A stretch of DNA of 64,000 bases from contig OX597839.1 of NCBI GenBank assembly GCA_951406725.2, positions 4,278,001 to 4,342,000 on the forward strand, in the 5' to 3' direction. This DNA comes from Octopus vulgaris (lineage: Eukaryota). A model generated the notes under the pieces. The model had not been told where the DNA came from. It did not search any database and worked only from the letters and a program-made list of their open reading frames with translations. Positions 60,516-64,000 of this stretch are shown here, piece after piece (position 1 is the stretch's first letter; every line of letters begins with the position of its first letter). The translations under genes and the position numbers were made by a program.

Positions 60516-60705
60516 TACCGGTATATTACCTATGTTTAACCATGGCCATGCATTTGCAAGTATATTATGCTCATAGATTATAGGCAAAGACAAGGAAAAG
60601 GATGAGTTTATCAAGAATCAAAATGTACACACACACACACACACACACTAACACACATATATTATTATTATTATTATTATTATTATTATTATTATTATTA
60701 TTATT

Positions 60706-61262
60706 GAGTGAGAGAGCAGTGCATGCCATCAAAGTGACACTGGGGTAAAATATACGAAGCCCAGTATACCCATCATGACTACCCGTCTGATAAGGGTACA
60801 CTAGGCACATGCATCACAACCATATGTGTGTAACATGGTGATCTCATATCAAGATAAACAGCACATGACCTTGCAGGTGGGGCCCAATTAGAATTTTCTT
60901 CTAGTTGAGTAACCCATTCCACTCAAAAGGTCCTTGAATAAGGGTTGTTTAAGGATGTTGAATGAAACACCCATGTCTCCAGAGGTGAATTATTCAAACC
61001 CCAAAGAATCCCTCTCAACACATGGCTATGATGCTCCCCCACTACTTCTGCTTGTGATCAGAGATGCATATATCGTCAGCCACTAAGGGACATGCTCTAC
61101 TGGTTAAGGTCAAACAACTGACAAGCAAATCTGTGATATTGAGCAGAATATTTGCTGTAGCCCATCTTTTAATACTAAGACAAAACAATGTACATGATAA
61201 CACTTCCAATCAGTTAAGATCAGAAGCCATGAGAGCCACTGCCTGGTACTGCATCAGGGCAT
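60706..61262 (-). mobile_element. Element D, full length, in (TAA)n
   Basis: gagtgagagagcagtg...gcatcagggcat flanked by (att)n. Confidence 0.9.
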
Positions 61263-61354
61263 TTATTATTATTATAATTATAATTATTATTATTATTATT
61301 ATTATTATTATTATTATTATTATTATTATTATTATTATTATTATTATTATTATT

Positions 61355-61657
61355 GAGTGAGAGAGCAGTGCATGCCATCAAAGTGACACTGGGGTAAAAT
61401 ATACGAAGCCCAGTATACCCATCATGACTACCCGTCTGATAAGGGTACACTAGGCACATGCATCGCAACCATATGTGCGCGACATGGTGATCTCATATCA
61501 AGATAAACAGCACATGACATTGCAGGTGGGGCCCAGTTAGAATTTTCTACAGGTCGAGTAACCCATCCCGCTCAAAAGGTCCCTGAATAAGGGTTGTTTA
61601 AGGATGTTGAATGAAACCCCCATGTTTCCAGAGGTGAATTATTCAAACCCCAAAGAA
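61355..61657 (-). mobile_element. Element D, truncated, in (TAA)n
   Basis: Same left end, stops at ccccaaagaa. Confidence 0.9.
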
Positions 61658-61746
61658 TTATTATTATTATTATTATTATTATTATTATTATTATTATTAT
61701 TATTATTATTATTATTATTATTATTATTATTATTATTATTATTATT

Positions 61747-61963
61747 CAGTAGTTCTATTTTTATAGCGTGCTTTCACTTCACTACCGAGCGCAGCTCTGT
61801 GTGCCTTGGGTATGTGCTGTGATTTGTTGTGATGCTCTGATGGTTATTGTATGGAAAGTGTTCTGCGTAGGATGTGTGCAGTGCCTAGTAGTGCAATTTT
61901 CTGTATGTTATATGTGTTTGTAAGTCCTGGTGTTTTTGTTATGTATTTGTCTGAATATTTTTT
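61747..61963 (-). mobile_element. R4/Dong-like retrotransposon, short 3' fragment in (TAA)n
   Basis: Near-identical to 62111-62328. Confidence 0.9.
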
Positions 61964-62110
61964 ATTATTATTATTATTATTATTATTACTATTATTATTA
62001 TTATTATCATTATTATTATTATTATTATTATTATTATTATTATTATTATTATTATTATTATTATTATTATTATTATTATTATTATTATTATTATTATTAT
62101 TATTATTATT

Positions 62111-62993
62111 CAGTAGTTTTATTTTTATAGCGTGCTTTCACTTCACTACCGAGCGCAGCTCTGTGTGCCTTGGGTATGTGCTGTGATTTGTTGTGATGCT
62201 CTGATGGTTATTGTATGGAAAGTGTTCTGCGTAGGATGTGTGCAGTGCCTAGTAGTGCAATTTTCTGTATGTTATATGTGTTTGTAAGTCCTGGTGTTTT
62301 TGTTATGTATTTGTCTGAATATTTTTTTATCATGCCTAATGCACCTACTATGATAGGAATTGTTTCTGTTTTCAGGTTCCACATTCTAGTTACCTCTATT
62401 TCCAGGTCTTTGTATTTTGAGAGTTTCTCCATTTCTTTTAGAGACACGTTGTCATCTGCCGGTATTGATACATCAATTAGAAAGCATTTTTTTCCTTCAT
62501 GATCTCTGACAACTATATCTGGTCTGTTGGCCTTAATTTCTCTATCTGTGTGTATCGGCATATCCCAGAGTATGGTTGCTTTCTCGTTTTCTGTGACCTT
62601 TTCTGGTGTGTGCCTATACCATCTTTTTTCTGTTGTTATTCCATAATGTTGGCATAGCTTCCAGTGTATGTAGGTTCCAACCCTGTCATGTTTGTGAATA
62701 TATTCCTTCTTAGCCAGGACTGGGCAGCTAGAGATAATATGATTTATTGTTTCTTGTCCATCTCCACATATTCTGCAGTTACTTGTAATATTTCTTTTCA
62801 TTACATGTTTTTGGTAATTTCTGGTGGGGAGGCTTTGGTCTTGTGCTGCAATTAAAAATCCCTCTGTTTCTGCTTTGAGTCCTGAGCTTCTCAACCATTG
62901 CTGGGATTTTTCTTTGTCTATTTCTTTGGCGTTTAGTTTAGTGCAGTAGTTACCATGAAGGGGCTTTTCTTGCCATCGTTTTATCATGGCTCG
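62111..62993 (-). mobile_element. R4/Dong-like RLE non-LTR retrotransposon, 5'-truncated, in (TAA)n
   Basis: Open 259-aa frame plus ~97-bp 3' UTR, (aat)n on both sides. Confidence 0.92.
62208..62987 (-). CDS. C-terminal part of a retrotransposon polyprotein: CCHC knuckle plus restriction-like endonuclease (truncated, no RT)
   Basis: LHG...AAQDQSLPTRNY...CRICG..ETINHIISSC...HD...ILWD...NRPDIVV...LIDVSIP...EKLSKYKDL...PIIVGALG. Confidence 0.9.
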   Translation of the reverse strand: MIKRWQEKPLHGNYCTKLNAKEIDKEKSQQWLRSSGLKAETEGFLIAAQDQSLPTRNYQKHVMKRNITSNCRICGDGQETINHIISSCPVLAKKEYIHKHDRVGTYIHWKLCQHYGITTEKRWYRHTPEKVTENEKATILWDMPIHTDREIKANRPDIVVRDHEGKKCFLIDVSIPADDNVSLKEMEKLSKYKDLEIEVTRMWNLKTETIPIIVGALGMIKKYSDKYITKTPGLTNTYNIQKIALLGTAHILRRTLSIQ

Positions 62994-63055
62994 TTATTAT
63001 TATTATTATTATTATTATTATTATTATTATTATTATTATTATTATTATTATTATT

Positions 63056-63612
63056 GAGTGAGAGAGCAGTTCATGCCATCAAAGTGACACTGGGGTAAAA
63101 TATATGAAGCCCAATATACCCATCATGACTACCCGTCTGATAAAGGTAAACTAGGCACATGCATCACAACAATATGTGCGCGACATGGTGATCTCATATC
63201 AAGATAAACAGCACATGACCTTGCAGGTGGGGCCCAGTTAGAATTTTCTACAGGTTGAGTAGCCCATCCTGCTCAAAAGGTCCCTGAATAAGGGTTGCTT
63301 TAGGATGTTGAACGAAACACCTATGTTTCCAGAGGTGAACCATTCAAACTCCAAAGAATCCCTCTCAACACATGGCCATGATGCTCACCCATTACTTCTG
63401 CTCGTGATCAGAGATGCACGTATTGTCAGCCACTAAGGGACATGCTCTACTGGTTAAGGTCAAACAACTGACAAGCAAATCTGTGATATTGAGCAAAAAT
63501 ATTTGCTGTAGCCCATCTTTTATACCAAGACAAAACAATGTACATGATAACACTTCCAATCAGTTAAGATCAGAAGCCATGAGAACCACTGCCTGGTACT
63601 GCATCAGGGCAT
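63056..63612 (-). mobile_element. Element D, full length, in (TAA)n
   Basis: As 60706-61262. Confidence 0.9.
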
Positions 63613-63797
63613 TTATTATTATTATTATTATTATTATTATTATTATTATTATTATTATTATTATTATTATTATTATTATTATTATTATTATTATTATTAT
63701 TATTATTATTATTATTATTATTATTATTATTATTATTATTATTATTATTATTATTATTATTATTATTATTATTATTATTATTATTATTATTATTATT

Positions 63798-64000
63798 CAG
63801 TAGTTTTATTTTTTATAGCGTGCTTTCACTTCACTACCGAGCGCAGCTCTGTGTGCCTTGGGTATGTGCTGTGATTTGTTGTGATGCTCTGATGGTTATT
63901 GTATGGAAAGTGTTCTGCGTAGGATGTGTGCAGTGCCCAGTAGTGCAATTTTCTGTATGTTATATGTGTTTGTAAGTCCTGGTGTTTTTGTTATGTATTT
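63798..64000 (-). mobile_element. R4/Dong-like 3' end, runs off the window
   Basis: cagtagttttattt...cactaccgagcgcagctctgtgtgcc matches 62111 onward. Confidence 0.9.

Follow-up and report, generated by a model that had tools for sequence, protein, structure and literature searches.

Element D, a TAA-specific non-autonomous retroposon of Octopus vulgaris probably moved by Dong-type enzymes

Element D is a 556-nt non-coding repeat family with fixed ends, found in a 64,000-nt stretch of the Octopus vulgaris genome (assembly GCA_951406725.2, contig OX597839.1, positions 4,278,001 to 4,342,000 of the forward strand; hereafter the window), at the end of which three minus-strand D copies and three minus-strand pieces of a Dong-like element, Dong-A, are interspersed with (TAA)n tracts. 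D lacks coding capacity and has a fixed 3′ end, one-sided 5′ truncation, and variable 5′ junctions, and we classify it as a TAA-specific non-autonomous retroposon of the type that lacks long terminal repeats (non-LTR). We consider it probable that D is copied into TAA microsatellites by the reverse transcriptase (RT) and endonuclease of Dong elements (R4 clade), which would recognize a predicted stem-loop in the D tail. An initial annotation of the window had proposed a site-specific non-autonomous retroposon mobilized by an R4/Dong enzyme; our results support this in outline, a Dong/R4 enzyme being the mobilizer that we infer.

A repeat family bound to TAA tracts

In the 2.8-Gb genome searched (227 contigs), exact 25-mers give 7,179 matches for the D tail and 5,537 for the D head, with none for reversed controls; these are lower bounds on D copy number. 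Position-ordered samples were taken from the first 30 tail and first 30 head matches in genome order, with no length selection. Nineteen of the 30 tail-anchored copies extend as far as the 5′ end (to position 13 or closer), so D is not, as the initial annotation had allowed, simply the long 3′ untranslated region (UTR) of another family lacking a fixed 5′ end; the other 11 are 5′-truncated, with breakpoints at positions 76-464. Truncation is one-sided (5′ only): among head-anchored copies, 28/30 reach the tail and 2/30 lack it, compared with the 11/30 tail-anchored copies that are truncated at the 5′ end.

The TAA preference holds on both sides of D and also for truncated copies, the background rate for the flank criterion being 0.7%. 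TAA lies directly after the tail in 28/30 tail-anchored copies and precedes 16/19 of the intact and 9/11 of the 5′-truncated ones (of the two truncated copies without it, one abuts a Dong-A open reading frame [ORF] and one an inverted tract), and it is present upstream of 25/30 head-anchored copies. Among all loci examined, 21/34 matches without the D 5′ part have TAA upstream, these 34 including second halves of internally deleted D copies. Against 5,537 heads, there are 3,743 pattern matches with TAA immediately upstream of the D head; since certain places are counted twice, the resulting 68% is an upper limit. The first 8 nt past the 3′ end are AATAATAA in 94/119 D copies, and upstream of the 5′ end no sequence is common to all copies of the tail-anchored sample.

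Identity to the D consensus ranges from 86 to 99%, with a median of 96% (64 position-ordered copies), and certain copies differ by <0.5% from their nearest neighbor. Parts of D are present in all 20 public runs listed (seven organisms), four of which gave many D contigs that are 85-100% alike. No RNA run is listed among those that contain D, which says nothing for or against its expression.

At 7/83 D heads (5 loci) the first 15-35 nt are duplicated, similar joints are present in two of the public runs, and 5′-end duplications are also seen in Dong-A (L084, L097, and L233). On the D tree, 5′ junction type requires 27 changes, compared with 28.0 when shuffled; this independence of junctions from the tree is consistent with junctions formed anew at each insertion, and we infer that the 5′ end of D RNA is defined and that its junctions are made each time it inserts.

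Dong families and the predicted fold of the D tail

Dong elements encode an RT and a restriction-like endonuclease and, as described in PMC7998251, members of the Dong/R4 clade target TAA in most insects, molluscs, and cnidarians. The length of Dong-A is about 3.95 kb, and at one locus (L081) it has an unbroken 1,242-aa ORF with an RVT_1 domain (E 2e-32), in which residues 469-1223 match R2 proteins from the RT through the endonuclease region. The homologues found for this protein are mostly unnamed RT proteins, and a W-T-x-E-E motif, which may mark a diverged Myb/SANT domain, is seen near the N-terminus, a region with no Pfam match. The best Dong-A copies are 98-99% alike, TAA lies upstream of 42/53 truncated copies, and 77/81 ends are followed by AATAATAA. 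In many copies the open frame measures 811-814 aa; this suggests that the frame is broken repeatedly at the same site, whether genuinely or through an assembly error.

Many further Dong-like families end in TAA tracts, their 130 distinct ORF ends falling into 18 UTR clusters, a few of which are one family split; two of these other families look young (UTR identity 98-100%). Distinct Dong-like families coexist in TAA tracts at L002, L024, L082, L091, L098, L139, L174, L230, and L232. That D and Dong-A join the repeat in the same register, as had been pointed out for the window, is what we observe, but it is weak evidence, since the possible phases number just three and different apparent phases are seen at the ends of other Dong families that target TAA.

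Across seven Dong family groups the UTRs give a gap-free alignment of 41 nt; in its predicted fold, an 8-bp and a 6-bp stem are separated by a 3-nt bulge, with a loop of 5 nt and a single base left unpaired. The fold covaries, with 11/14 pairs changing on both sides and a score of 0.61 versus 0.23 when shuffled, a covariation somewhat inflated by kinship among the 18 alignment rows; 85% of cells pair in it, compared with 34-45% in slid controls. Most aligned Dong families share this bulged 3′ UTR stem-loop, and in the L139 family it overlaps the stop codon.

The Dong UTR register accommodates D positions 461-498, given a single additional A. Model R1, from whose construction D and Dong-A were both left out, gives nine hits in the window, which include all four young D copies, with D tails at ranks 1 and 2 (14.3 bits, E 0.29). 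It finds 12/28 sampled D tails (28 of the 30 tail-anchored loci) and hits 4/9 held-out Dong groups at 9-15 bits (two assigned by eye), the same range as D. On a separate pair-and-position profile the D tail scores 15.0, with 0/3,523 tail shuffles and 0/512 whole-D shuffles as high; Dong-A scores 0.0 on the same profile, with 87/2,680 shuffles as high. All four common variants in the D tail stem preserve pairing. D and Dong had been described as having no 3′ similarity, which is correct for sequence but probably not for RNA structure, judging by R1 and the shuffle profile. The modeled match between the D tail and the Dong UTR fold is likely real but modest. It appears to point away from Dong-A as sole partner, the predicted D tail resembling other Dong families more than Dong-A, and the mobilizing family need not be Dong-A.

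The argument for mobilization in trans draws on the coexistence of D with young intact Dong elements, shared TAA flanks, one-sided truncation, and 5′ duplications. In the scheme that we propose, D RNA with a defined 5′ end would be transcribed from a putative promoter, a Dong protein would bind the D tail fold in trans, and the Dong enzyme would nick a (TAA)n tract and reverse transcribe D from its 3′ end; early stops would give truncated copies, and template jumps would give 5′ duplications. Such insertions would leave TAA on both sides, so that D and many Dong families could accumulate in the same tracts.

Several observations count against mobilization through the tail fold. No partner family for D was found among the sampled Dong families, and a pattern joining a Dong ORF end to a D-like tail gave two matches, neither of them a partner. 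The fixed 5′ end of D is explained by no promoter or ribozyme that we found. Primary similarity between the D tail and the Dong UTR clusters is not significant (best 3/1,000 shuffles among 33 tests). The R1 score of D is weak, as its E value for the window indicates, and R1 misses 5/9 held-out Dong groups, Dong-A included; it also gives unassigned hits of up to 12.7 bits in the window and of 9-13 bits with the held-out groups, and one of 14.3 bits in the scan of sampled D-tail loci. The best whole-D shuffle is nearly tied with D on the profile (14.99 versus 15.00), and the D motif was spotted by eye before the model register was fixed. No common D variant alters both sides of a tail pair, and all D copies together amount to a single observation for the fold match.

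Full-length Dong-A and D share no sequence, and D shows no likeness to 12 longer stretches with other Dong families, near-full-length ones included. The L017 family was rejected as the partner: its best copies have 79-91% protein identity and its longest open frame is 366 aa (150 scored), and it is probably too old to serve the youngest D copies.

Composition of D and alternative origins

The initial annotation saw no credible ORF or tRNA-like head in D, and we agree: no Dong-like ORF remnant is present in the six frames, ARAGORN found no tRNA, and the six Rfam hits were weak, each scoring far under the gathering threshold, with TAA driving the best of them. A 5S-derived head was rejected, with 184/500 shuffles scoring as high in the comparison with host 5S. 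No A or B boxes of RNA polymerase III were found in D, which holds three internal T4 runs. Whole D folds better than shuffles (z -3.9). A 5′ ribozyme like that of hepatitis delta virus (HDV) had been suggested, but with our own descriptors neither HDV-like nor hammerhead ribozymes matched in D (a loose descriptor fired in 6/60 shuffles), and no HDV-like ribozyme was found in two of two Dong-A 5′ ends with a descriptor uncalibrated on known ribozymes; for Bombyx Dong, PMC3774820 describes a 5′ self-cleaving ribozyme.

In a post hoc comparison, the D head has a weak likeness to host tRNA-Sec, the two being collinear from base 1 onward with an identity of about 50%. Shuffles score as high in 332/3,000 local and 38/3,000 anchored comparisons (11 to 319/3,000, depending on the scoring scheme), and the head is equaled by other D windows in its score against tRNA-Sec. 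Two identical tRNA-Sec genes (L220 and L221; G000:C24) lie about 57 kb apart on opposite strands, with several degenerate copies elsewhere.

When consensus sequences are compared, the middle of D, positions 103-272, shows 6 differences over 170 positions (~96% identity) from the interior of a miniature inverted-repeat transposable element (MITE) of 489 nt. This MITE ends in CAC...GTG, its inverted arms, which begin with CAC, measure 111-121 nt, and it is flanked by TAA/TTA; matching TAA or TTA is present on both sides in 4/8 complete copies (30 loci). In its termini and flanks the MITE matches Chapaev3, described in PMC4079192 as having CAC...GTG termini and a TWA target duplication, and we refer to it as Chapaev3-like. 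Three of the oldest D copies each carry one MITE state among six diagnostic sites. At the MITE loci (L175-L204, for example L185) the segment corresponding to D 103-272 adjoins the right arm, and there are at least 192 exact junction matches genome-wide. A sister short interspersed nuclear element (SINE) with the D head and another tail, hinted at by loose contig ends, turned out to be this MITE. At L031:617-872, D positions about 190-260 stand in four tandem copies that overlap the MITE-shared segment.

A bolder version of the Dong hypothesis, which we offer as a tentative possibility, is that D, a composite RNA parasite with a cryptic promoter, hijacks microsatellite-specific Dong enzymes through its shape alone. 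Its unrelated sequence would fold as a Dong 3′ UTR stem-loop, making it movable by several Dong families and able to outlive their turnover; the head may be a tRNA-Sec remnant, and the middle may have been exchanged with a DNA transposon.

The best-surviving alternative, although we regard it as unlikely, is that D is a short internally deleted element (SIDE)-like derivative of an unsampled or extinct Dong family, its 5′ part and tail being the UTRs of that family and the tail fold thus inherited, not mimicked. SIDEs are known for R2 (PMC3414825), the D tail scores like a held-out Dong family UTR, and the genome is rich in Dong families, with the 18 UTR clusters and 92,270 first-look candidates, of which 146 were scored. 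Against this reading, D retains no ORF remnant in any frame and is unlike both full-length Dong-A and the 12 longer stretches, no ORF end was found before a D-like tail, and the middle of D is common to a DNA-transposon derivative.

D could instead be an ordinary SINE-like element of an RTE-type or other non-specific long interspersed nuclear element (LINE), with the TAA tail coming from its own RNA and the clustering being secondary. RTE-related elements end in microsatellite-like tails according to PMC6007223, and Table 1 of PMC13282606 gives RTE as active in an octopus genome. We strongly disfavor this route, because a tail cannot account for TAA upstream of 9/11 truncated copies, whose breakpoints are spread between 76 and 464, and D and Dong share strand and target, with the D tail fitting the Dong fold.

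Carriage of D as a Dong-A 3′ extension in Dong-A-TAA-D read-through transcripts, which the presence of a Dong-A 3′ end ≤260 nt upstream of 13/104 full-length D copies and of shared Dong-A upstream of 5/30 head-anchored copies might suggest, is very improbable and as a main route is largely refuted by tree scatter and spacer variation: the D copies behind Dong-A form no clade (13 changes on the D tree versus 12.5 shuffled), their Dong-A neighbors are scattered on the Dong-A tree (10 changes versus 9.5 shuffled), the spacers range from 12 to 180 nt, and most D copies have no Dong-A upstream. At one locus (L101:1212), Dong-A ORF sequence runs directly into D at about position 242, and no TAA separates them; the cause is either a template switch between D and Dong-A RNAs or a later deletion.

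Mobilization of D by Dong enzymes can be compared with known partnerships. EhLINE1 of Entamoeba histolytica is placed in the R4 clade. It has a restriction-like endonuclease (PMC3118788), and PMC2996970 describes EhSINE1 as non-coding, 500-600 bp long, with no identified small-RNA precursor and weak A/B boxes, with about 70 bp of 3′ sequence common to it and its LINE, and as inserting at dispersed T-rich sites. D is likewise non-coding, of similar length, and without an identified small-RNA precursor, but unlike EhSINE1 it shares no significant sequence with the sampled Dong UTRs, is confined to TAA tracts, and is present in thousands of copies. The R2 SIDEs and R2/R1 hybrid SIDEs of Drosophila are site-specific non-autonomous non-LTR passengers read via the 3′ UTR (PMC3414825). 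These SIDEs arise by deletion, carry an HDV-like ribozyme at the 5′ end, are identical in sequence to parts of their parent, and target ribosomal DNA, whereas D has no detectable ribozyme and targets a dispersed microsatellite; no parent homologous to D at both ends was found among the sampled Dong families. D works like EhSINE1 or an R2 SIDE, yet without the shared sequence by which these are tied to their partners. With Dong/R4 elements themselves it has in common the target, 5′ truncation, and the predicted 3′ UTR fold, but D encodes nothing. Like tRNA-, 5S-, and 7SL-derived SINEs, D is short, non-autonomous, high in copy number, and modular; unlike strict SINEs, it has internal T4 runs and lacks a small-RNA head, A/B boxes, and 3′ sequence shared with a partner LINE, a comparison that covered Dong families only.

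Non-autonomous partners of restriction-like-endonuclease retrotransposons are mainly EhSINEs and R2 SIDEs, both sharing partner sequence; if our reading is true, D is a high-copy microsatellite-specific passenger without shared sequence. We found no TAA-specific non-autonomous Dong partner described in the literature, in a search that left Repbase, Dfam, and most subscription papers outside. As recently active, PMC13282606 gives 893 unclassified SINE families and five Dong-R4 families; repeat libraries may well contain D under the label of an unclassified SINE. The covarying 3′ UTR fold across Dong families is a candidate for R4-clade template choice, and a 41-nt element makes template recognition directly testable; this may bear on RNA-templated insertion at dispersed non-coding sites, as done with R2.

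D copies, Dong-A pieces, and TAA tracts in the window

The interleaving of three D copies with three Dong-like pieces in one (TAA)n tract was correctly described in the initial annotation, as were the further D copy in TAA at 27690, the left-end junctions (ttatt followed by gagtg or by cagta, at the ends of D and Dong pieces), and the truncation of the short D copy on the same side as the Dong pieces. All features of the array are on the minus strand. Its (TAA)n tracts lie at 60661-60705, 61263-61354, 61659-61746, 61964-62110, 62996-63055, and 63613-63797.

By sequence comparison, a full-length D copy occupies 60706-61262; its segment shared with the Chapaev3-like MITE interior (D positions about 103-272) lies at approximately 60990-61160, and its predicted Dong-type bulged stem-loop at 60760-60801 is the best R1 hit in the window (14.3 bits, with the shuffle control). 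This stem-loop would consist of an 8-bp stem and a 6-bp stem with one extra A, a 3-nt bulge between the two, and a GGGUA loop. The 5′-truncated copy at 61355-61658 (D positions about 254-557) has its predicted tail stem-loop at 61409-61450 (14.3 bits with R1), and the full-length copy at 63056-63612 has one at 63110-63151 (9.0 bits). In a separate TAA tract, the full-length copy at 27690-28245 (minus strand) has a predicted tail stem-loop at 27744-27785 (10.2 bits). The young D copies in the window are mutually 95-96% alike. Beyond those in the initial annotation there is an old decayed copy at 7747-8196 on the plus strand, with both ends gone and 79% identity; its nearest relative is at 83%, the best among 40 scored candidates, and no separate old D subfamily was found among these.

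What had been called three Dong fragments are two truncated pieces and a nearly full-length element that is merely cut by the window. The first piece is a 5′-truncated Dong-A 3′ end (61747-61963). The second (62111-62995), also 5′-truncated, comprises the C-terminus and then the 3′ UTR, and its translation gives a 261-aa open C-terminus with zinc knuckle (CCHC) and restriction-like endonuclease (PD..D) motifs. The third, with its 3′ end at 63798-64000, extends ~3.45 kb beyond the window with one frame break; this locus (L100) covers Dong-A positions 275-3942, with ORFs of 324 and 799 aa.

Eleven exact D-head 25-mers lie at G000:C1:30148145-30148999, mostly about 65 nt apart, a cluster that is possibly a satellite made from the D head. 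An abundant SINE-like repeat often borders TAA tracts in opposite orientation, with its head or tail against the tract (L005, L010, L014, L018, L022, and L029), and may seed or share them; a related repeat lies in the window at 60079-60489.

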